Source of the DNA: Nanopusillaceae archaeon | GTDB lineage: Archaea; Nanobdellota; Nanobdellia; Nanobdellales; Nanobdellaceae | Length of the DNA: 7,575 nucleotides | NCBI GenBank assembly: GCA_049973735.1 | Contig: JBMFJL010000028.1 | Span: 1 to 7,575, forward strand | Direction of reading: 5' to 3' | Translations under genes and position numbers: made by a program | Shown here: in pieces, positions 1-7,575 of the stretch | Layout of the letters: every line of letters starts with the position of its first letter | Position numbering within the stretch: position 1 is the first letter of the stretch | The notes under the pieces: generated by a model | Told to the model about the DNA's origin: nothing | Seen by the model: only the letters and a program-made list of their open reading frames with translations | The model's database searches: none

Positions 1-4
1 GACC

Positions 5-1060
5 TCATTTCATTTTCTGAGCAATTATTCCAACTTGTATTTCGCCCAGTTTATTTTTATCAAAATCATTTACTTTCTTTATTACCAAATATGCTGGATA
101 TTCAAATGATTTATCTGCTTCATTCCTTACTCCCAACTCTATTTTCATTATATTATTAATATTTAAGTTTTCTGGATTATAAATTATGTCATTTATTACA
201 CTACACAACAAATCATTTGTACATACTGAGTAGATCTTAAATGTTCTTGGGAAGAAAAACTGTAGAGTCTGTATATTGTGATATACATAATAATCTCCGC
301 TATTCTGTTTTTGTTCTTTATGATGACAATGATTATATGGATTTGACATTGCATTATAGTATTCGTAAAATGTCATACCAAGGTTCAATGCAACATCAAG
401 TGCAATACTTACACCTATACCAATTGGGCCTCCTATTTTTGATATTATCAAACCGCCTACATATGTTTCTATAGCACTTATGGTTGAATATACAATATTC
501 TCTTGCAAAATTGTTGGAATCTCATATACAAATGAACTTATAGCAAATCTATTTGTTTCTGCAGCATAATTTAAAATACTGGTAGCACTGCCTGCTACCA
601 AATTTATTGAAAAATCTGCTGCTGCTGCCTTTGCTAATGTACCCATTATTTTACTAATATCAGCAGTTTTTAGAAATGGTATTGCTGATAATATCCCACC
701 TATAACACCAAAAAATACGCTTTGGGATACTTGTTCCCATAGATTTTTCCTAATACAATATCCTATAGATGTATAAAAACTATCACTACTATAGGTTTGA
801 AATGAAAAGAAATACCTTGTTTGTGGAACTCCTATTCTAAATTCTAAAAGAGGAGCTGGTTGTGAAGTAACATATATTACTGATGTCATTTCACCAGGTT
901 CTGATGTTGAATAAGTTAAAAAACCTGCAGTTTCTAATAATAAATATTTATTATGTGGATGAAATAGTTGTCCTGCAATATAAGGTAAATAAAATCCAAT
1001 TAGTAATACTACTATAATAAATATTGATGCAATTACAACATCTAGCAAAGTCTCCTCCAT
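5..1060 (-). CDS. Hypothetical polytopic membrane protein, 351 aa; sixth (last) gene of the minus-strand surface/membrane operon
   Basis: Complete ORF (ATG 1058-1060, TGA 5-7). Its ATG overlaps the stop of the upstream gene by 1 nt (TAATG). The plus strand is T-rich here, as over all minus-strand genes in the window. N-terminus is MEETLLDVVIASIFIIVVLLIGFYLPYIAG. Further hydrophobic segments lie at aa ~114-130 (VFFGVIGGILSAIPFL) and aa ~199-229 (TYVGGLIISKIGGPIGIGVSIALDVALNLGM, Gly-rich). No protein family recognised by eye. Confidence 0.6.
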   Translation of the reverse strand: MEETLLDVVIASIFIIVVLLIGFYLPYIAGQLFHPHNKYLLLETAGFLTYSTSEPGEMTSVIYVTSQPAPLLEFRIGVPQTRYFFSFQTYSSDSFYTSIGYCIRKNLWEQVSQSVFFGVIGGILSAIPFLKTADISKIMGTLAKAAAADFSINLVAGSATSILNYAAETNRFAISSFVYEIPTILQENIVYSTISAIETYVGGLIISKIGGPIGIGVSIALDVALNLGMTFYEYYNAMSNPYNHCHHKEQKQNSGDYYVYHNIQTLQFFFPRTFKIYSVCTNDLLCSVINDIIYNPENLNINNIMKIELGVRNEADKSFEYPAYLVIKKVNDFDKNKLGEIQVGIIAQKMK

Positions 1061-1992
1061 TATGTTTGAGTACCTGGAGATATTGGATATAGAATATTAA
1101 CATATAAATTATCTCCATCTACTGTAAATTTTATTGTTTGTCCTGTAACAATTCTATTTAATACTCCTGTACATGAATAACCTATAGTACACTTTAATAT
1201 TAATAAATCTACTCCAAGTTCTGCACAGTATACATATGCATTCTGTCCAGTATTATATTGAAATACATTTGCACCTGGAAAGAATCCATATAAGTATGCA
1301 CAAGAACCCATCGGACATGAGATTACAGAACCACCATTTTTACATATAGCATTTTTATCTGTAGATGGATAATCGAAGGTACATCCATTTGTAGAATCAC
1401 ATGTTATATTAACCCCTGCAGTCACTCCAAGGGTAGGATTGGACAAATACACCATAGATTTAAATATGTTGGAAGTACTTGATATAATTACAGGAGTTCC
1501 AAAGTAATATGTCATTTTACAATCTCCTTCTCCCCTTGGGACACATAAATATCCGGAAGAAAATGGAGTACCATTTATATATATCTTTATCCTATTCTTA
1601 TTTAATTTTTGATGAAATACCCTTACACAAGTTGATAGATCTGGTCCTATATAGAAAATTCCTTTTTGCTGATCATAATATAATACTGATATTCCATATT
1701 GAACTTCTCCAGAAGTAAATCCCGTCTGACATCTATATAGATCTAGATATAAACCACTACCATTTGTTTCTATTATATATATAAAATCTGGATCGTATGA
1801 TGTTATTACAACTGTACCTTTTCCATTATCTATATTGCTAGCTAATTCTTTTGCAAATTTGATATACTTTGGTTGCTCACCGGTTGATATTCCAACTAAA
1901 CCTAAAATAAATACTGCTACAAGTATTACCAGTATTAAAACAACTATTATTTCAAATACTACTTTTAAAAATGATTCTGTTGCCCTTTTCAT
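1060..1992 (-). CDS. Cys-rich ectoprotein with class III (prepilin-like) N-terminus, 310 aa; fifth gene of operon
   Basis: Complete ORF. Its ATG (1990-1992) lies 1 nt after the stop of the 53-aa ORF. N-terminus is MKRA|TESFLKVVFEIIVVLILVILVAVFILGLVG, i.e. K-R then a small Ala before a long hydrophobic helix. The rest is Gly/Thr/Tyr/Val-rich (beta-type composition). All 12 Cys lie after the helix. There are 3 N-x-S/T sequons (NGS, NGT, NIT). No family recognised. Confidence 0.7.
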   Translation of the reverse strand: MKRATESFLKVVFEIIVVLILVILVAVFILGLVGISTGEQPKYIKFAKELASNIDNGKGTVVITSYDPDFIYIIETNGSGLYLDLYRCQTGFTSGEVQYGISVLYYDQQKGIFYIGPDLSTCVRVFHQKLNKNRIKIYINGTPFSSGYLCVPRGEGDCKMTYYFGTPVIISSTSNIFKSMVYLSNPTLGVTAGVNITCDSTNGCTFDYPSTDKNAICKNGGSVISCPMGSCAYLYGFFPGANVFQYNTGQNAYVYCAELGVDLLILKCTIGYSCTGVLNRIVTGQTIKFTVDGDNLYVNILYPISPGTQT

Positions 1993-1993
1993 A

Positions 1994-2155
1994 TTATAAG
2001 CCAGATTCGTTTACAACTTTATATCCAACGCTTGTCACATTCATCTTAATAGAATTGTTTACTATGTAATAATATATGAATACACCCAGTACTATTAATA
2101 CAATGGCAATAATTAAATATATTAGAAAGTTTGTTCCTTCTTCAGACCTCCTCAT
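1994..2155 (-). CDS. Single-helix mini-protein, 53 aa (pilin-like design); fourth gene of operon; NOT in the supplied ORF track
   Basis: Hand translation of the minus strand. The ATG at 2153-2155 overlaps the TGA (2152-2154) of the upstream ORF as ATGA; the stop TAA is at 1994-1996. Product: MRRSEEGTNFLIYLIIAIVLIVLGVFIYYYIVNNSIKMNVTSVGYKVVNESGL. It has the same design as its neighbours. It fills an otherwise unexplained gap of about 160 nt in a tightly packed operon. The tail of about 20 residues has three sequons (NNS, NVT, NES). The smallest ORF in the track is 60 aa, so this one was probably filtered out by size. Confidence 0.55.
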   Translation of the reverse strand: MRRSEEGTNFLIYLIIAIVLIVLGVFIYYYIVNNSIKMNVTSVGYKVVNESGL

Positions 2156-2346
2156 GGTGTACTTCCTTGAACATTTCCTTGTATTTCGCTTATTACATGA
2201 GTCCCATTTGTTTGATTCACACTATTAAATAAATTTGCTCCTCCTTTAAAGTAATATGCAGAAAATATTACCAATAATACCAAGGCAACAATAAACAATA
2301 TTATTAAAACTAAGAAATTACTTACCTGAGATCTTTTATGGTACAT
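2152..2346 (-). CDS. Single-helix mini-protein, 64 aa (pilin-like design); third gene of operon
   Basis: ORF track. Its ATG (2344-2346) overlaps the preceding ORF by 11 nt. N-terminus is MYHKRS|QVSNFLVLIILFIVALVLLVIFS. The C-terminal tail YYFKGGANLFNSVNQTNGTHVISEIQGNVQGSTP has NQT and NGT sequons. Confidence 0.6.
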   Translation of the reverse strand: MYHKRSQVSNFLVLIILFIVALVLLVIFSAYYFKGGANLFNSVNQTNGTHVISEIQGNVQGSTP

Positions 2347-2470
2347 TGTTTTGTCCTATCAATTTTAGGTTCCATCCAACCTTTGGCCCTATTACAATAA
2401 AAATAAGTACTAATGCCAATATGACAAATATTAATGCTAATATTATTTTTAATAGTTCACCAGTTTCCAT
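2336..2470 (-). CDS. Single-helix mini-protein, 44 aa if started at ATG 2468-2470 (72 aa if started at 2554); second gene of operon
   Basis: The track gives 2336-2554. That start overlaps the 402-aa gene by 50 nt and adds a 28-residue extension (MKVDHIQYLLHHSSKSKNLIIVKGFRYI) unlike any neighbour. The internal ATG gives METGELLKIILALIFVILALVLIFIVIGPKVGWNLKLIGQNNVP, which matches the neighbours' design. The start cannot be resolved from sequence alone. Confidence 0.5.
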   Translation of the reverse strand: METGELLKIILALIFVILALVLIFIVIGPKVGWNLKLIGQNNVP

Positions 2471-2504
2471 TATATATCTAAAGCCTTTGACTATTATAAG
2501 GTTT

Positions 2505-3713
2505 TTACTCTTGGAAGAATGATGTAACAAATATTGAATGTGATCCACCTTCATATGTATATACTATATAACCGATAATACCAGATTGTTTAGATTCTGG
2601 TACTATTATTGTCGAACATCCTGCATCTTTTTGCAATGAATATTCTTGAACATCTGTATCAGTTACTTTATATGATTGGGTATAAAGCATTTTATTAATT
2701 GGGTCTGGAACACTACCGCCATTGTTACAAGAACCAACATTATTTAAATCCAATAGATTACATACTAAAGAGTCATCTGCTACCTTTTCAATATCTGTTC
2801 TATACATTTGCTTAAATGGATTCTTATCATAATAATTCATCATGTATAACATACAAAATACTGAAGATAAAGAAATTTCTTTACCCCTATAATCTAAATA
2901 TGTTATAGAATAGTGAGTATGTACTCCTGCAATAGATACTGCCTGTCCCAAGGTTTCACCAAATGTATTATAAAGATACTTTGCAATTAGATATGTTAAA
3001 AATATTGTCTGACATTCTGATTTTGTGGGATTTGAAGAACATTTGTAAGTTTTCTCTATTTTATCTACATAAGTTTGATTTAAATCCCTATACATTCTAT
3101 TTATATCTCTTGGATCTATTGATGTTGTATTAGTTGCTACTATTCCTACCGGTACTAGATAATATAATAACGGACCTTGAATCATTTTTGCAACCTGATT
3201 TAATACTGATCCGAGTACATATAGTCCTGCGCTTGTCAATGCAAGTTGTTGGAAATATGGATTTCCTACTACATATGTTATACCCTCCTTTGCACCAGTT
3301 GAAAATTTGTATAAAGTAGATTCTTCTTCCACTTTACCCAAAATCTTTTCTGCATATTTTTTATATTGTTCTTTTGATATTCTACCAGCTTGTAATTCTT
3401 CTCTTGCAAATTCCAATGCCTCTATATATCCTGTGGATTTTGATCTCACTGCACTTATACCACCTATAACAACTGCAGCTAATAATATTCCTGCAGTTAT
3501 ATATAATCCTATTTGTCCTACACTTTGAGTAATTTGTGCAGGTTTAACTACTAAGAAATCTACAGTACCAGAAAGTGCATAAGCAAATTTTGCCTGTAAT
3601 CTTCCACTATATGATAAAGCTTTAAAGAAATTAAATAATATGATCAACAATACTATAAATATTATTATTATCAAGATTAATCTTATTACATCATCCGAAA
3701 CTGCCCTTTTCAT
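2505..3713 (-). CDS. Membrane protein with class III-like N-terminus, about 3 TM segments and a Cys-containing C-terminal ectodomain, 402 aa; first gene of operon
   Basis: Complete ORF. N-terminus is MKRA|VSDDVIRLILIIIIFIVLLIILFNFF. From memory, its K-R-A-V-S resembles the R-A-V-S-P start of archaeal pilin N-terminal domains (Pfam PF07790 type). A second clear TM lies at aa ~66-89 (GQIGLYITAGILLAAVVIGGISAV). A charged helical stretch follows at aa ~90-135 (EALEFAREELQAGRISKEQYKKYAEKILGKVEEE), then a hydrophobic region at aa ~155-193. The C-terminal domain of about 200 aa holds all 6 Cys and the NTT and NQT sequons. Confidence 0.7.
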   Translation of the reverse strand: MKRAVSDDVIRLILIIIIFIVLLIILFNFFKALSYSGRLQAKFAYALSGTVDFLVVKPAQITQSVGQIGLYITAGILLAAVVIGGISAVRSKSTGYIEALEFAREELQAGRISKEQYKKYAEKILGKVEEESTLYKFSTGAKEGITYVVGNPYFQQLALTSAGLYVLGSVLNQVAKMIQGPLLYYLVPVGIVATNTTSIDPRDINRMYRDLNQTYVDKIEKTYKCSSNPTKSECQTIFLTYLIAKYLYNTFGETLGQAVSIAGVHTHYSITYLDYRGKEISLSSVFCMLYMMNYYDKNPFKQMYRTDIEKVADDSLVCNLLDLNNVGSCNNGGSVPDPINKMLYTQSYKVTDTDVQEYSLQKDAGCSTIIVPESKQSGIIGYIVYTYEGGSHSIFVTSFFQE

Positions 3714-3776
3714 ATAAAGTTAAAAATCCTTGAGAATTTAAAAATTTAATAAAATTTTCTATATATTGATAAAATA
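3714..3776. promoter_or_regulatory. Divergent promoter region between the six-gene operon and the C2H2 zinc-finger gene
   Basis: A 63-bp A/T-rich spacer separates divergent ATGs at 3713 (-) and 3777 (+). TATA-like runs are centred about 27 nt upstream of each ATG: TTTAATAAAA (3745-3754, plus sense) and TTTTTAAATT (complement of 3735-3744). No Shine-Dalgarno-like purine run is adjacent to either ATG, which is compatible with leaderless mRNAs. In DNA this AT-rich, such motifs also arise by chance. Confidence 0.35.
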
Positions 3777-4043
3777 ATGCTAAAGGCGGTTAAAGATGTA
3801 TCTAGGAATGGAATGTTAATATATAGATGTAGGTTGTGTGGACATGTATTTATTAATGGTAAGCAATATGCAAAACATTTAGTTAAATCTCACTTAAGAA
3901 ATATGAGCATGAATAAAAGAAAAGCCAAAAAATTATACAAGAGATTATTATTGATAAAAATTAAACAAGAAAATAATTTAGAGTTAACAAATTATGAAAA
4001 GTATCTATTATTAAAGGCAAAATTGAATAATATAAAGCTATAG
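3777..4043 (+). CDS. Small classical C2H2 zinc-finger protein with basic helical tail, 88 aa (putative DNA-binding regulator)
   Basis: aa 16-39 (nt 3822-3893), YRCRLCGHVFINGKQYAKHLVKSH, fits the classical finger pattern Y-x-C-x2-C-x3-F-x5-Y-x2-H-x4-H exactly. The C-terminal half is Lys/Arg/Leu-rich (NKRKAKKLYKRLLLIKIKQENNLELTNYEKYLLLKAKL). The plus strand is A-rich over the ORF, as expected for a plus-strand gene here. An alternative start at Met13 is possible. Confidence 0.65.
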   Translation: MLKAVKDVSRNGMLIYRCRLCGHVFINGKQYAKHLVKSHLRNMSMNKRKAKKLYKRLLLIKIKQENNLELTNYEKYLLLKAKLNNIKL

Positions 4044-4595
4044 CTATATAGTAAATAGTTTTATTCTTTCTTTTCCAGATAATTCTTGTATTATTCTTTG
4101 ATATATTATATCCTCAACCTTTCCCGGTATTTTTGTCCTCTTTTCTATATCTTCAAATGATTCAAATGGTTTTTTATTCCTTTCTTCAATTATCTTTTGT
4201 ACTGTAACTTTTCCTATATTTGGAAGTAGTTCTAATGAATGTATTCTTATGTTTATTGGTCCTGCTTTATTGAAGAATTCGACATATTTTTTCTCATTTT
4301 TCTTTATTAAATCTTTTATTACTCTTTCCAAATTTGCTTTTGCTATTTCCGGTAAATCATCGACACCAACCCTTCTTAGTATTGATCTGACCTTTGGCCT
4401 CTGTCCCTCGCCGACATATAATTCTTCAAAATTTTCAACCGAAACACCTGGCTTTAACGTTAATATTAATAATGTAAAGTAATCTTTTCCAATAGCATAT
4501 ACTATTGGCTCTTTTATATTTTTAGTTGGATCTCCTCCTGGTAAATATGCTAAAACTATTGCATATTCTTCTTTTTTTGTTTCTCTTTTATCCAT
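4044..4595 (-). CDS. DUF655 / COG1491 family predicted nucleic-acid-binding protein (OB-fold N-terminus plus helix-hairpin-helix C-terminus), 183 aa
   Basis: The N-terminal EEYAIVLAYLPGG and the C-terminal HhH-like LELLPNIGKVTVQKIIEERNKKPFESFEDIEKRTKIPG are typical of this archaeal family. The ATG overlaps the rpoF stop by 8 nt (ATGGATAA), reproducing the conserved archaeal rpoF-COG1491 gene pair. Confidence 0.85.
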   Translation of the reverse strand: MDKRETKKEEYAIVLAYLPGGDPTKNIKEPIVYAIGKDYFTLLILTLKPGVSVENFEELYVGEGQRPKVRSILRRVGVDDLPEIAKANLERVIKDLIKKNEKKYVEFFNKAGPINIRIHSLELLPNIGKVTVQKIIEERNKKPFESFEDIEKRTKIPGKVEDIIYQRIIQELSGKERIKLFTI

Positions 4596-4905
4596 ATTTC
4601 TTTATTATATCCAATATTTTGTTCATTTCTTCCTTAGAAATTGTATTAGTATATAGTACAACTCTTAATTCTTCTTCATTTTTTGGCAACATTTCCAAGA
4701 TTTGTATTTTAACTTCATCAAGTAATTTTATATCTTTCATCTCCTCCAAAATCTTTTTTTCTTCTTCTTCATCCAATTTATATGTGGTTTCAAGGAATTT
4801 CAATACCCTTTCCTCTACACTTGACAATTTTCTTTTTTTCTTTATTTCTTTTAATAAATTTTTAACATATCCTGGAGTAACAATTTTCTTTTCGCCAATT
4901 TCCAT
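4588..4905 (-). CDS. rpoF: DNA-directed RNA polymerase subunit Rpo4 (RpoF, Rpb4 family), 105 aa
   Basis: A small Lys/Glu-rich helical protein. The C-terminal LPKNEEELRVVLYTNTISKEEMNKILDIIKKYG resembles the C-terminal helical domain of archaeal subunit F. It is adjacent to L21e and translationally coupled to DUF655, the conserved archaeal neighbourhood. Confidence 0.8.
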   Translation of the reverse strand: MEIGEKKIVTPGYVKNLLKEIKKKRKLSSVEERVLKFLETTYKLDEEEEKKILEEMKDIKLLDEVKIQILEMLPKNEEELRVVLYTNTISKEEMNKILDIIKKYG

Positions 4906-4958
4906 TTTATATATCTTTAAAATATTATTTAAAAATATATCACAAAGTATTATAGAAA
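4906..4958. promoter_or_regulatory. Bidirectional promoter region for rpoF (-) and rpl21e (+), possibly with one shared TATA element
   Basis: A 53-bp spacer. A single A/T run ATTATTTAAAAATAT (4924-4938) is centred about 27 nt from both ATGs (4905 on minus, 4959 on plus). It reads TTTAAAAATA on plus and TTTTTAAATAAT on minus. There is no SD-like element before either ATG, which is compatible with two leaderless transcripts. Confidence 0.4.
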
Positions 4959-5255
4959 ATGACTGCTAGGAAGGGTAAAGGACTTAGAAGAAAAAGTAGA
5001 GATAAATTATCTTTAGATATAAGAGATCATGGTAAAATAAAGATTAGAAAGATATTGGCGAAATATAATGAAGGAGATAGAGTTGTAATTAAAATATATT
5101 CATCATACCATGATGGAATGCCACATCCAAAATATCATGGATTCATTGGAGTAATTAAAGGGAAAAGAGGGGATTGTTATGAAGTACTAATAAATGACAA
5201 GGGAAAAGAAAAATTATTAATAGTACATCCCGTACATTTAGAAAAACTAGCTTAA
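4959..5255 (+). CDS. rpl21e: Large-subunit ribosomal protein L21e (eL21), 98 aa
   Basis: The basic N-terminus is MTARKGKGLRRKSRDKLS. The core GDRVVIKIYSSYHDGMPHPKYHGFIGVIKGKRG fits the L21e signature by eye (G-D-x-V-x10-G-x2-H-x2-Y-x-G-x-[T/I]-G). Size and neighbourhood are as in other archaea. Confidence 0.93.
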   Translation: MTARKGKGLRRKSRDKLSLDIRDHGKIKIRKILAKYNEGDRVVIKIYSSYHDGMPHPKYHGFIGVIKGKRGDCYEVLINDKGKEKLLIVHPVHLEKLA

Positions 5256-5771
5256 ATCTTTTGATAATATATCCTTTATCTTTTTAATATTATCATCGTC
5301 TAAAAATTTTATTTCCAATATATAACCTAAATTACTTTTTTCATTATATTTTATATATAATTTCATTGTTTTTGTTTTCATTATCCTATCAAATATACTC
5401 TTACTAATTTTTATATCTTTAATGTATTTTAAATCTATTTTGTATTTATTTCCATTGATTATTTCTATTAAATTATTCTTTTCAAATAATAAAACATAAT
5501 TTTTTGCATAGAAATAATATGAAGCTAAAAAATAAATTAGCAAAATTATGATTCCAACCGTTATATAATTTGTATAAATATCTACATATGTTCTTTGTAA
5601 AAATAATTGAATAAGCAGATATATTATAGTCAGAAGCATTATCTTAAATGATTTGTCTATTGAATACAAAAGTGGATTATATCTTATTAAAAATATTGCA
5701 TCTTCGATATTCTCGGAGTCAATGATTTTCTTTATAATATCTTTATCATAAATTAGTTCAATTCGCTGCAT
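5247..5771 (-). CDS. Membrane protein with two TM helices followed by a bacterial-PH-like (bPH_2 / DUF304, YdbS-like) domain, 174 aa
   Basis: Two hydrophobic helices: FKIMLLTIIYLLIQLFL and YITVGIIILLIYFLASYYFY. They are followed by NYVLLFEKNNLIEIINGNKYKIDLKYIKDIKISKSIFDRIMKTKTMKLYIKY. By eye this follows the bPH_2 pattern (a strand, G, then I-x-di-x-i-x-q/s-x3-R-x5-t-l-x-i). The 3' end overlaps rpl21e by 9 nt in convergent orientation. Confidence 0.5.
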   Translation of the reverse strand: MQRIELIYDKDIIKKIIDSENIEDAIFLIRYNPLLYSIDKSFKIMLLTIIYLLIQLFLQRTYVDIYTNYITVGIIILLIYFLASYYFYAKNYVLLFEKNNLIEIINGNKYKIDLKYIKDIKISKSIFDRIMKTKTMKLYIKYNEKSNLGYILEIKFLDDDNIKKIKDILSKDLS

Positions 5772-5806: not shown

Positions 5807-5989
5807 ATGAAATCTGATGTTCCTATCCAAATATTGATATTTATGATAATAGGAATTGTAGTATTAGTAGTTGCAATATTTTTTGCAACAAATATATTTA
5901 AATCTGCAAGTACTTCAGCAAATACTTCCTTTAACTATATAAATAGCACATTTCATAATGTAACAAACGAAACATTACTTATAAAATGA
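5807..5989 (+). CDS. Single-helix mini-protein, 60 aa, with sequon-dense tail; first gene of plus-strand surface module
   Basis: ORF track. Product: MKSDVPIQILIFMIIGIVVLVVAIFFATNIFKSASTSANTSFNYINSTFHNVTNETLLIK. There are four N-x-S/T sequons (NTS, NST, NVT, NET) in the last 22 residues. The stop TGA (5987-5989) overlaps the next ATG (5986-5988) as ATGA. Confidence 0.6.
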   Translation: MKSDVPIQILIFMIIGIVVLVVAIFFATNIFKSASTSANTSFNYINSTFHNVTNETLLIK

Positions 5990-7575
5990 GTAAATCTAGA
6001 TCTTTCTTCTTCATACCTTTTATATACTATTTTGTTATTTTTATTATAATACTTGCCGGAGTTTTATTTATTTTATTATCAATATTTAAATACAAATATC
6101 CTTTATTTTCTAATGTAGAAACTTCACAAGCTTTATCAGAACAAAATCAAAATAATAACAATATCAATAGTGGACAGAAATCAAATATAACTGTAATTGT
6201 TGAAACCTTCGGACAATTTGATAACAAAGTATTTTACATACAAAAATTATCTGATAGTATTTATTATTATATAAATTCTACAGTAGTTTCTGCCCCTACT
6301 ACAAATCTTGTGGCTCCAGATCCTTCATTAATATATAATAATACTCCAAATATATATCAAATAACTGCTCTACAAGGTCTTACCTTAAATATAAGTATTG
6401 TGTTAACAAATAATACAGACAATTCTACTATAGTAACATTCAATGGAGGATATTGTAAAGTAATGAATAGCCAAAATTATGATGTTATAAATGTGCAAAA
6501 TAAAAATGAACCAATAATATTTTGTTTATTATGTCAAGATACAAAAGGATTTAGTACATATGTTTATTTAGATAAACCAGAAAAAATAAATGTAACCCCT
6601 GCAATTTCCCTACTATCCGGATTTGAAAACATAGATTATTATAAATATACTATAGAAGATCTTACAATCGTAAATAAAACTATAACAACCATAAATATAG
6701 GCGATTATGGCAAATTAGGATATGAATTCTTAGATTTTACTACAATACTATTTAAAATAGGACCTCCTTTTAATACTTATATAAAAGATGACGGTAGTAA
6801 TGTTTTATTTTTATATAAAGATTTGTATAGTGGCAATTACTATGCATTACCATCTTGGTATGCTGGATTTGAAAATAGCAACAATGGTAAAGTATATTAT
6901 TTCTTCGTAAACTTGCTTGAGTTTCCCTCAAAAATACGTAAAAGTTCTGTATCTAAGAATTGTCCATTTTTACCAATATATATTGCATTTGCAGATAGAG
7001 AATTATATAGCATTTTGAACGGTACCATTGGAGGAGATCCTTATGCAATAAATCCAAATAATCCTGGAAGCGTTGTTAAGTATGACAATGGTCCAAATGT
7101 ATTCCCTGTATACATAAATTTATACAATTATGGTTTTGTAGATTTCTTTAGTTATCATCTTTCTAACAACGTTTTATATTTTTACTATGATAATTCTGCC
7201 TATAAAGATGTATTACCAACATATAATCCATGGAATCTATATTATCCAAATCCAACGGGTGGTTTACATCCACAGGGACTTACTTTATTAAATGATAAAG
7301 ATCAAGGAGTATTTATTTTGGTAAATTCTACACTTTTGAATATATTTCCAAGATACATACTAGATAAAAATAGTTATAAATATGGAAATGGGTTGAATGT
7401 ATTTGTTTATTTCTCTGGAAGTCCTATTGTAAATCCTAGAGAAATAAGTTGTGGTTTTTTTAAATGTCCAGAGTATGCAGATGCTGTTAGTATTGCATAT
7501 CAAATTTCTGTCAACATAATAATCTTCTACAGTGTTTATGGTTATTCCATACTCTCTCAACTCATTTATATATTC
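5986..7575 (+). CDS. Large N-terminally anchored, sequon-rich surface protein, at least 530 aa, 3'-truncated by the window edge; NOT in the supplied ORF track
   Basis: I checked the frame codon by codon. Frame 1 (positions congruent to 1 mod 3) is open from ATG 5986 to 7575, exactly 530 codons with no stop. The N-terminus is MSKSRSFFFIPFIYYFVIFIIILAGVLFILLSIF, followed by an Asn/Gln-rich linker (SEQNQNNNNINSGQ). The ectodomain is Tyr/Asn/Gly-rich with at least 10 N-x-S/T sequons and 6 Cys. The plus strand is A-rich throughout. The track probably lists only stop-delimited ORFs. The 66-aa minus ORF at 7360-7560 is antisense to this gene. Confidence 0.8.
   Translation, partial: MSKSRSFFFIPFIYYFVIFIIILAGVLFILLSIFKYKYPLFSNVETSQALSEQNQNNNNINSGQKSNITVIVETFGQFDNKVFYIQKLSDSIYYYINSTVVSAPTTNLVAPDPSLIYNNTPNIYQITALQGLTLNISIVLTNNTDNSTIVTFNGGYCKVMNSQNYDVINVQNKNEPIIFCLLCQDTKGFSTYVYLDKPEKINVTPAISLLSGFENIDYYKYTIEDLTIVNKTITTINIGDYGKLGYEFLDFTTILFKIGPPFNTYIKDDGSNVLFLYKDLYSGNYYALPSWYAGFENSNNGKVYYFFVNLLEFPSKIRKSSVSKNCPFLPIYIAFADRELYSILNGTIGGDPYAINPNNPGSVVKYDNGPNVFPVYINLYNYGFVDFFSYHLSNNVLYFYYDNSAYKDVLPTYNPWNLYYPNPTGGLHPQGLTLLNDKDQGVFILVNSTLLNIFPRYILDKNSYKYGNGLNVFVYFSGSPIVNPREISCGFFKCPEYADAVSIAYQISVNIIIFYSVYGYSILSQLIYIF

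Follow-up and report, generated by a model that had tools for sequence, protein, structure and literature searches.

A nine-gene operon of the Nanopusillaceae

The stretch of DNA analysed here (hereafter the window) is the entire 7,575-bp contig of a metagenome-assembled genome (MAG) from the Nanopusillaceae (Nanoarchaeota/Nanobdellota, DPANN). It has a GC content of ~29%, and neither Rfam nor tRNA scans found RNA genes in it. Our subject is a run of six closely packed genes on its minus strand, here called g1 to g6 (Table 1). The 402-aa product of g1 is identical to NCBI ACP5G1_02390, and the 310-aa product of g5 to ACP5G1_02370. An earlier reading made from the letters alone (the sequence-only reading) had described these genes as one translationally coupled operon of pilin-like and polytopic membrane proteins. 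The open reading frames (ORFs) and the junctions between them (+34, -11, -4, +1 and -1 nt) came out the same when re-derived. At g2, for which a junction of either +34 or -50 had been allowed, the METG start (44 aa, +34) is the right one, as in all relatives.

The unit extends beyond the window. We fetched the contigs of homologues of the 402-aa protein and scanned one genome per species. Ten Nanopusillaceae genomes have the same gene order, as does Nanobdella aerobiophila MJ1, a later addition. The junction classes, too, are shared by these 11 further genomes, which include the complete Ca. Nanopusillus acidilobi 7A and strain YN1, as well as Ca. Nanobsidianus stetteri; the carriers belong to Nanopusillus, Nanobsidianus, Nanobdella, and strains YN1 and KM4331-08. 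In the relatives, g6 is followed by g7 (278-339 aa), g8 (155-165 aa) and g9 (487-515 aa), joined by -4, -1 or +6 junctions plus one ~30-nt spacer, and then by TYW3 on the opposite strand. The g7-g9 products also begin with a short polar region and then a hydrophobic helix. In these genomes g7 starts MR(S/A)LSLKDIIEYI and has a -4 junction with g6. Bases 8..1 of the window, read on the minus strand, are ATGAGGTC, the conserved g7 start, with the same 4-nt overlap with the g6 stop. The window shows six genes only because the contig ends there, and the supposed six-gene operon in fact has nine genes. The gene neighbourhood, whose conservation had been proposed as a check, is strictly kept in related genomes. 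The six window genes are genes 1-6 of a Nanopusillaceae-specific nine-gene operon.

Three cultured systems carry the orthologues: N. acidilobi (Nps_00220-00255), Nanobdella aerobiophila (locus L016, nine genes at 10001-16559, MJ1_0042-0050, with MJ1_0042 as g1) and YN1 (L003, the full operon from YN1_3840, its g1, onward). The operon is chromosomal and lies among housekeeping genes (TYW3, primase, FBPase, ribosomal proteins) in every family genome examined. Variant forms occur in distant lineages, which retain g1, one or two small proteins and five larger ones. In one such lineage the other operon genes are missing, and a distant 363-aa g1 homologue is flanked by NurA and a tRNA synthetase gene (L017, 10001-11092); g1 may thus be able to act by itself.

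The overlaps between genes stand, but full translational coupling does not necessarily follow. The unit need not be one uniformly coupled operon because its spacers carry conserved TATA-like boxes. Between g1 and g2, the box is as far from the start codon as an archaeal TATA box would be for a transcript without a leader. The element TTTATAAATT(G/A)CAAAG directly follows the g1 stop, about 24-30 nt ahead of the g2 ATG, in eight genomes (Nanopusillus, Nanobsidianus), and YN1, KM4331-08, Nanobdella and the window have recognisable variants of it. A similar conserved AT-rich spacer of ~30 nt precedes g9 in the relatives. An internal promoter between g1 and g2, and likewise between g8 and g9, is thus possible, with a leaderless g2 mRNA. 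The presumed promoter of the operon as a whole would lie in the intergenic region upstream of g1.

Table 1. Features of the operon in the window (coordinates are those of the 7,575-bp contig)
Feature	Position	Strand	Remarks
g1, 402 aa	2505..3713	-	ORF
g2, 44-aa micro-protein	2336..2470	-	ORF; alternative 72-aa start at 2554
g3, 64-aa micro-protein	2152..2346	-	ORF
g4, 53-aa micro-protein	1994..2155	-	ORF
g5, 310 aa	1060..1992	-	ORF
g6, 351 aa	5..1060	-	ORF
g7 start, first 8 nt (ATGAGGTC, Met-Arg-Ser)	1..8	-	Cut by contig end
g1-g2 spacer, 34 nt	2471..2504	-	TATA-like box ttataa at 2494-2499, 24-29 nt upstream of the g2 ATG
Intergenic region upstream of g1	3714..3776	-	AT-rich, TATA-like runs; shared with a divergent C2H2 zinc-finger ORF (3777-4043); presumed promoter

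Anchored proteins with probable ectodomains

All nine families have one strong N-terminal hydrophobic helix. In the six window products, 2-9 polar residues precede a helix of ~19-25 residues with a Kyte-Doolittle 19-residue mean of 3.0-3.8, in agreement with the earlier description of every product as a polar start followed by a hydrophobic helix. A rough Hessa-scale sum for the N-terminal helices gives -1.9 to -7.1 kcal/mol. The same description took the 351-aa and 402-aa proteins to be polytopic. For g6 this is unsupported, as only a single segment is predicted to insert into the membrane; its orthologue, by our own gene-order mapping onto the published N. acidilobi table, is Nps_00240, with one transmembrane domain (TMD). 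For g1 it is marginal: there is one strong segment and a marginal one at residues 68-86 whose hydrophobicity is not kept in every orthologue, and the published table lists 3 TMD for Nps_00220 (g1). We also considered g1 and g6 as polytopic FlaJ/TadC-like platform or transport proteins and rejected this, given the lack of at least five transmembrane helices and of a T2SSF match.

The individual products have distinct conserved features. Past its anchor helix, g1 carries the conserved juxtamembrane motif SY(S/A)GRxxAKF(A/G)YAL and a helical region; its C-terminal domain, of alpha/beta type, contains conserved Cys and is marked by the signature TYLIAKYLxxTxGETLGQ. The micro-protein g2 has an acidic N-terminus (METGELLK), one helix and a GPK(V/I)G tail. 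In g3, a basic N-region ends in [K/R]-[S/T/G] and is followed by Q/D, one helix, a YFKGG motif and a tail with a conserved NG(T/S) sequon; the single helix of g4 precedes a tail with the conserved sequons NVT and NQS/NES. The most divergent member is g5 (19-29% identity to orthologues in the alignment, 23-33% pairwise), whose N-terminal helix contains a conserved acidic residue. Its description as Cys-rich is borne out by the 12 Cys counted in the window protein, versus 6-8 in relatives. The g6 protein has an acidic N-terminus, 4 conserved Cys and the invariant motif HNxYLxxExAGF(I/L)TYSTSEPG.

N-glycosylation sequons exceed shuffled controls in g4, g7, g8 and g9 (observed versus shuffles: 1.9 vs 0.3 in g4, 11.6 vs 4.8 in g7 and 15.4 vs 8.5 in g9) and fall below them in g1, g5 and g6. 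Most orthologues have an even, conserved number of Cys: 4 in g1, g6 and g7, 6-12 in g5 and 12-14 in g9. These patterns fit disulfide-bonded, partly glycosylated ectodomains whose extracellular location we infer. In N. acidilobi, the same neighbourhood also contains a gene for a disulfide-forming vitamin K epoxide reductase (VKOR; L009, 4193-4759, Pfam E = 3e-19). The gene is not present in the window but is noteworthy beside Cys-rich ectodomains.

Families without known relatives

The sequence-only reading recognised no family in the six proteins, and wider searches lead to the same result. Pfam, NCBIfam, PHROG and PADLOC scans of the window proteins and of the relatives' g7-g9 gave nothing above threshold. 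PDB profile searches with g1, g3, g5, g6, g7, g8 and g9 gave no credible match. The published arCOG-based gene table of N. acidilobi lists Nps_00220-00255 without an arCOG. The nearest approach is that of g2 to Pfam DUF7554 (PF24431), at 23.3 bits and E = 8e-5, below the 25-bit gathering cut-off. At E ≤ 0.01, four of nine g2 sequences (the window and three of eight orthologues) match this family, none above the cut-off. We rejected membership, given the score and a match limited to the hydrophobic helix, in the first half of the 60-residue model; the family itself is without known function.

The distribution of these proteins is narrow. For g1, 27 homologues were found at 33-43% identity, all from Nanopusillus, Nanopusillaceae or hot-spring metagenomes. 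A g1 profile run exhaustively with HMMER against 1.84 billion representatives returned 28 clusters, the named ones being Nanopusillaceae MAGs, YN1_3840, Nanobdella MJ1_0042 and one MAG labelled Aenigmatarchaeota. A word-indexed homology search with g5 returned only itself, so its orthologues were located by synteny. Paralogy within the operon was tried and rejected: hhalign matched the N-terminal helices alone, and the ectodomains of g1-g9 are not detectable paralogues.

With 28 close homologues, the AlphaFold2 model of g1 reached a predicted local distance difference test (pLDDT) score of 57.7. Adding distant homologues raised this to 75.6, with a predicted template modelling score of 0.68; over residues ~190-310, pLDDT exceeds 90. 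In the model, an anchor helix and several long helices extend to residue 186, and the C-terminal alpha/beta domain follows. Foldseek found no neighbour for this model in PDB or BFVD.

Purifying selection and rapid divergence

We estimated the ratio of nonsynonymous to synonymous substitution rates (dN/dS) by the Nei-Gojobori method in five genome pairs. Nearly all comparisons of g1-g9 gave values <1. The micro-ORFs are coding because their dN/dS is 0.03-0.43 (g2 0.17-0.33, g3 0.14-0.42, g4 0.03-0.43), and the larger operon proteins range from 0.14 to 1.0. All nine are real genes under purifying selection.

Could the unit nevertheless be non-functional, either chance ORFs in AT-rich DNA or the remnant of a virus or mobile element? 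The low GC content of the window does favour long ORFs and hydrophobic codons (ATT, TTT, ATA), and g4 has a weak match, confined to its helix, to an unannotated PHROG. However, chance origin is excluded because gene order and junction classes recur in the 11 further genomes, with synteny across genera, and dN/dS is <1 for all nine genes in most genome pairs. Among 2.9 million viral contigs of IMG/VR, neither g1 nor g9 had a relative; BFVD gave none for g1, and no PADLOC or PHROG family could be assigned. We consider this explanation effectively refuted.

The operon genes also diverge quickly. Flanking FBPase, primase-like Toprim and TYW3 genes have dN/dS of 0.03-0.13 in the same pairs at similar dS, and the values for the operon genes are 3-10 times those of these housekeeping neighbours. 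Identity between window and YN1 is 23-51% for the cluster proteins and 76-88% for the adjacent DUF655, Rpo4 and L21e proteins. In the L006-L010 and L009-L010 pairs, g1, g5, g6 and g9 have dN/dS of 0.6-1.0 vs 0.03-0.10 for flanking genes, a sign, perhaps, that selection on the large ectodomains is relaxed or diversifying. Elevated non-synonymous single-nucleotide polymorphism density has been reported for hypothetical surface proteins of Nanoarchaeota (PMC6142677).

A separate observation concerns the affinities of the window genes. Its housekeeping genes are nearest those of YN1 (76-88% identity vs 59-71% to Nanobdella), and g1, g2 and g3 are nearer Nanobdella (44/70/60%) than YN1 (38/51/47%). 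Recombination, convergent host adaptation or uneven rates are possible causes.

The rate bears on a further alternative: a housekeeping complex of the envelope that has nothing to do with the host, acting for instance in S-layer anchoring, envelope biogenesis or glycosylation, or cell division, with subunits that share only signal-anchor N-termini. The location among housekeeping genes in every family genome examined, the sequon depletion of g1, g5 and g6, and the solitary g1 homologue of one distant lineage all agree with such a role. However, complexes of this kind normally evolve slowly and are phylogenetically broad, and here dN/dS is several-fold above that of the neighbours and the g1 family is confined to its 28 clusters. 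We therefore think this explanation improbable.

Are the products pilins?

The sequence-only reading likened the products to archaeal type IV pilins. In g1, [K/R]-[G/A/S] immediately precedes the helix in every lineage, distant ones included. In g3, g5, g7 and g9, [K/R]-[G/S/T/A/N] occupies this position, g3 of Nanobdella having a canonical K-G↓Q, and g4 and g8 are variable. Likeness of this kind stands for most families, but the acidic g2 and g6, the shape of g1 and the lack of a match to any pilin model tell against a pilin set in the strict sense. That the operon works like a pilin-type anchored assembly is plausible; that it is a type IV pilin set is unproven. The other option offered by the sequence-only reading, a membrane complex of a different and undescribed kind, stands.

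The absence of an ATPase, platform protein or prepilin peptidase from the window, as noted earlier, holds true and extends to ~10 kb in the loci with Pfam gene calls. Upstream ORFs in L003 and L009 likewise include no ATPase, platform or peptidase. Elsewhere in its genome, according to the literature, N. acidilobi has ATPases (arCOG01817/01818) and a TadC/platform-like protein (arCOG01814), and no A24 peptidase is annotated. A census of archaeal type IV pili lists two nanoarchaea without an A24 peptidase and reports that Nanoarchaeota have filament ATPases whose pilins could not be identified (PMC4858521). It is possible that assembly machinery is supplied in trans.

In distant Nanopusillaceae lineages, one to three extra small ORFs lie directly upstream of g1 in the same orientation (L013 9071-9903, L014 9701-9865, L015 3144-3308). 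They have very class-III-like starts (KKA↓ISLPIN, KRS↓VSLPIE, KRG↓FSFIH and RKA↓VSTDV), and no Pfam pilin match was found for them, even at E ≤ 1.

A candidate surface assembly for host contact

Nanoarchaeota/Nanobdellota attach to another archaeon, from which they draw lipids, nucleotides and probably ATP, and have genomes of about 600-770 kb. Our preferred reading, which we hold tentatively, is that the operon encodes a lineage-specific, fast-evolving surface assembly, anchored by pilin-like N-termini and involved in host contact. The nine products would form one multi-subunit complex of the cell envelope, its subunits inserted with the N-terminus inside and the C-terminus outside. By analogy with minor-pilin and pseudopilin sets, their N-terminal helices may pack laterally, holding subunits in the membrane or extracting them from it. 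The micro-proteins g2-g4 would contribute little beyond a helix. The exposed part would consist of the large ectodomains of g5, g7, g8 and g9, predicted to be glycosylated and disulfide-rich, and g1, as the most conserved subunit and with its juxtamembrane motif, could be the membrane-proximal organiser. Located on the surface, the assembly would take part in contact with the host archaeon and may belong to the attachment organelle.

Several points weigh against this reading. Surface location and a role in host contact are what we infer, not what we observe. The N-termini of g2 and g6 are acidic, with no basic residue. Pfam Pilin_N and Class_IIIsignal and the NCBIfam archaeal flagellin N-terminal-like models gave no match for g1-g9 at E ≤ 1, and a strict FlaFind-type core expression matched no window protein and only g6 of relatives. 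Any N-in signal anchor has basic residues ahead of its helix. Unrelated anchored proteins in the same loci also show a basic plus a small residue before the helix, so the [K/R]-small-residue pattern is not discriminating. The g1 model, helical plus alpha/beta, is not lollipop- or pilin-shaped, and profile-profile alignment among the nine covers helices only. Tight coupling suggests near-equal stoichiometry, a misfit for a major filament subunit. No T2SSE, T2SSF or Peptidase_A24 Pfam domain occurs within ~10 kb in L001, L002 and L013-L017. Finally, Nps_00220-00255 went undetected in the published N. acidilobi shotgun proteome; this is a weak negative, as few tryptic sites (the proteins are Lys/Arg-poor) and probable glycosylation may explain it.

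One alternative overlaps the preferred reading and sharpens it: the products would be bona fide type IV filament (TFF) pilins, whose class III signal peptides a divergent prepilin peptidase would remove. Here g2-g4 would make up the filament, with g5 and g7-g9 as minor pilins or a tip adhesin, and an orphan nanoarchaeal ATPase/TadC pair would drive assembly in trans. Small archaeal major pilins, such as Methanococcus EpdE, and minor-pilin operons separate from their machinery, such as Pseudomonas fimU-pilVWXY1E, are known and count in its favour. So do [K/R]-[G/A/S/T] before the helix in 7 of 9 families, the Nanobdella g3 site, the class-III-like small ORFs upstream of g1 in distant lineages, and the nanoarchaeal ATPases without identified pilins (PMC4858521), among them arCOG01818 of N. 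acidilobi with its arCOG01814. However, neither a pilin hidden Markov model nor, with profiles of g3 and g5-g9, a PDB pilin or archaellin was matched; g2 and g6 have no basic N-region; g1 is not pilin-like; and in g2 and g3 a long alpha-1 helix would be interrupted by G-P or G-G right past the hydrophobic helix. The missing A24 peptidase, in N. acidilobi and in the two nanoarchaea of the census, and a coupled, near-stoichiometric layout that suits a major pilin poorly also count against true pilins, which we regard as possible but rather doubtful.

Might the operon instead encode structural parts of the attachment organelle itself? Cryo-electron tomography (cryo-ET) of Nanobdella aerobiophila, YN1 and YN4 has revealed an organelle with a cone, a portal or barrier and a 7-8 nm tube, the cone consisting of repeating units on the outer face of the membrane; the same papers state that its proteins are unknown (PMC11420986, PMC11104419, bioRxiv 10.64898/2026.06.04.730037). 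The complex would then be a static envelope machine without filament-type assembly, a reading that again overlaps the preferred one. Both imaged organisms with checkable genomes, YN1 (L003) and Nanobdella aerobiophila (L016), hold the full operon, and fast evolution fits narrow host specificity. However, presence in organelle builders, though required, does not nearly suffice: the link is one of correlation only, and hundreds of lineage-specific genes are common to all Nanopusillaceae genomes. To build a cone of ~8.5 x 10^4 nm2, a repeating subunit of high abundance is required, and the orthologues were unseen in the N. acidilobi proteome. No g1-family match carries the name of N. equitans, though N. 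equitans also attaches to its host. We judge this explanation unlikely. A survey of Nanobdella surface proteins does not discuss the operon genes, having considered only proteins with recognised signal peptides, and we found no mention of the orthologues' locus tags in the literature searched.

In genomes this tiny, a family-wide, fast-evolving operon of probable surface-anchored proteins without known relatives is one of very few coherent candidates for host attachment, with named targets in the three cultured systems (Nps_00220-00255, MJ1_0042-0050, and YN1_3840 onward). Should it build the organelle, it would represent a new kind of cell-cell contact machine that bridges to the host cytoplasm and is made of pilin-like-anchored subunits with novel folds. 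Should its products instead be the missing pilins of the orphan nanoarchaeal filament ATPases, a gap of the 2016 archaeal type IV pilus census would be closed. Whichever reading holds, its nine protein families are new, as is at least one fold (g1, predicted).

Neighbouring genes in the window

A second conserved module lies at 5807-5989 (+) and 5986-7575 (+), where it runs off the contig end. Its first ORF encodes a mini-protein of 60 aa that starts like a pilin (MKSDVPIQILIF...) and ends in a tail rich in sequons. The second, of at least 530 aa and with an N-terminal anchor helix, shares 4 nt (ATGA) with the first. Such a pair (60-62 aa plus 778-879 aa) also occurs in YN1, N. acidilobi, N. 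stetteri, a Nanopusillus MAG and Nanobdella, with no Pfam match.

A block comprising the C2H2 zinc-finger, DUF655, Rpo4, L21e, 174-aa membrane protein, 60-aa and large ORFs is inverted in the window relative to N. acidilobi, YN1 and Nanobdella (window 3777-5771 vs L009 2520-4268 and L016 4578-6321). The genes of 309-413 aa found elsewhere between this block and g1 (arCOG10265/10353 in N. acidilobi) are absent from the window. The 174-aa ORF (5247-5771, -) is hydrophobic in internal stretches and matches the bacterial PH domain family bPH_2 weakly (18.1 bits, cut-off 22). It adjoins L21e in relatives too, and the N. acidilobi table lists it as an uncharacterized membrane protein with 2 TMD.

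Comparison with known systems

The attachment organelle is found in the same organisms, is envelope-embedded and presents its units on the outer face of the membrane, and it is a possible product of the operon. It is defined by cryo-ET morphology alone, and the literature assigns no gene to it.

Archaeal type IV pilin and minor-pilin sets (Methanococcus Epd, Sulfolobales Aap/Ups; PMC4858521) share with the operon co-oriented genes, a short and often basic N-region followed by a helix of ~20-25 residues, some very small subunits, ectodomain N-glycosylation sequons, and machinery that may be encoded elsewhere. Unlike them, the operon has no Pilin_N, Class_IIIsignal or TIGR02537-type match, and most of its members are without a canonical cleavage motif. 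Two of its N-termini are acidic, the g1 architecture combines helices with an alpha/beta domain, genes for an ATPase, platform or peptidase are absent within 10 kb, and no arCOG is assigned in N. acidilobi.

Bacterial minor-pilin and pseudopilin operons, such as fimU-pilVWXY1E of Pseudomonas and GspH-I-J-K of type II secretion, are separate from ATPase and platform genes. They resemble the Nanopusillaceae operon in their packed layout, with helix-anchored subunits of very different sizes and a large adhesin-like member, and they form a stoichiometric priming or tip complex. They differ in belonging to another domain of life, in sequence and detected structure, and in a conserved Glu at +5 that the operon products do not have.

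ArlF/ArlG (FlaF/FlaG), stator-like components of the archaellum, are N-terminally anchored, uncleaved or pilin-like proteins with beta-rich, S-layer-binding ectodomains. There is no sequence match between them and the operon products, and the ArlF/ArlG genes sit within archaellum operons, elsewhere in these genomes. The likeness lies in the manner of anchoring: ArlF/ArlG show that pilin-like N-termini can act as static anchors.

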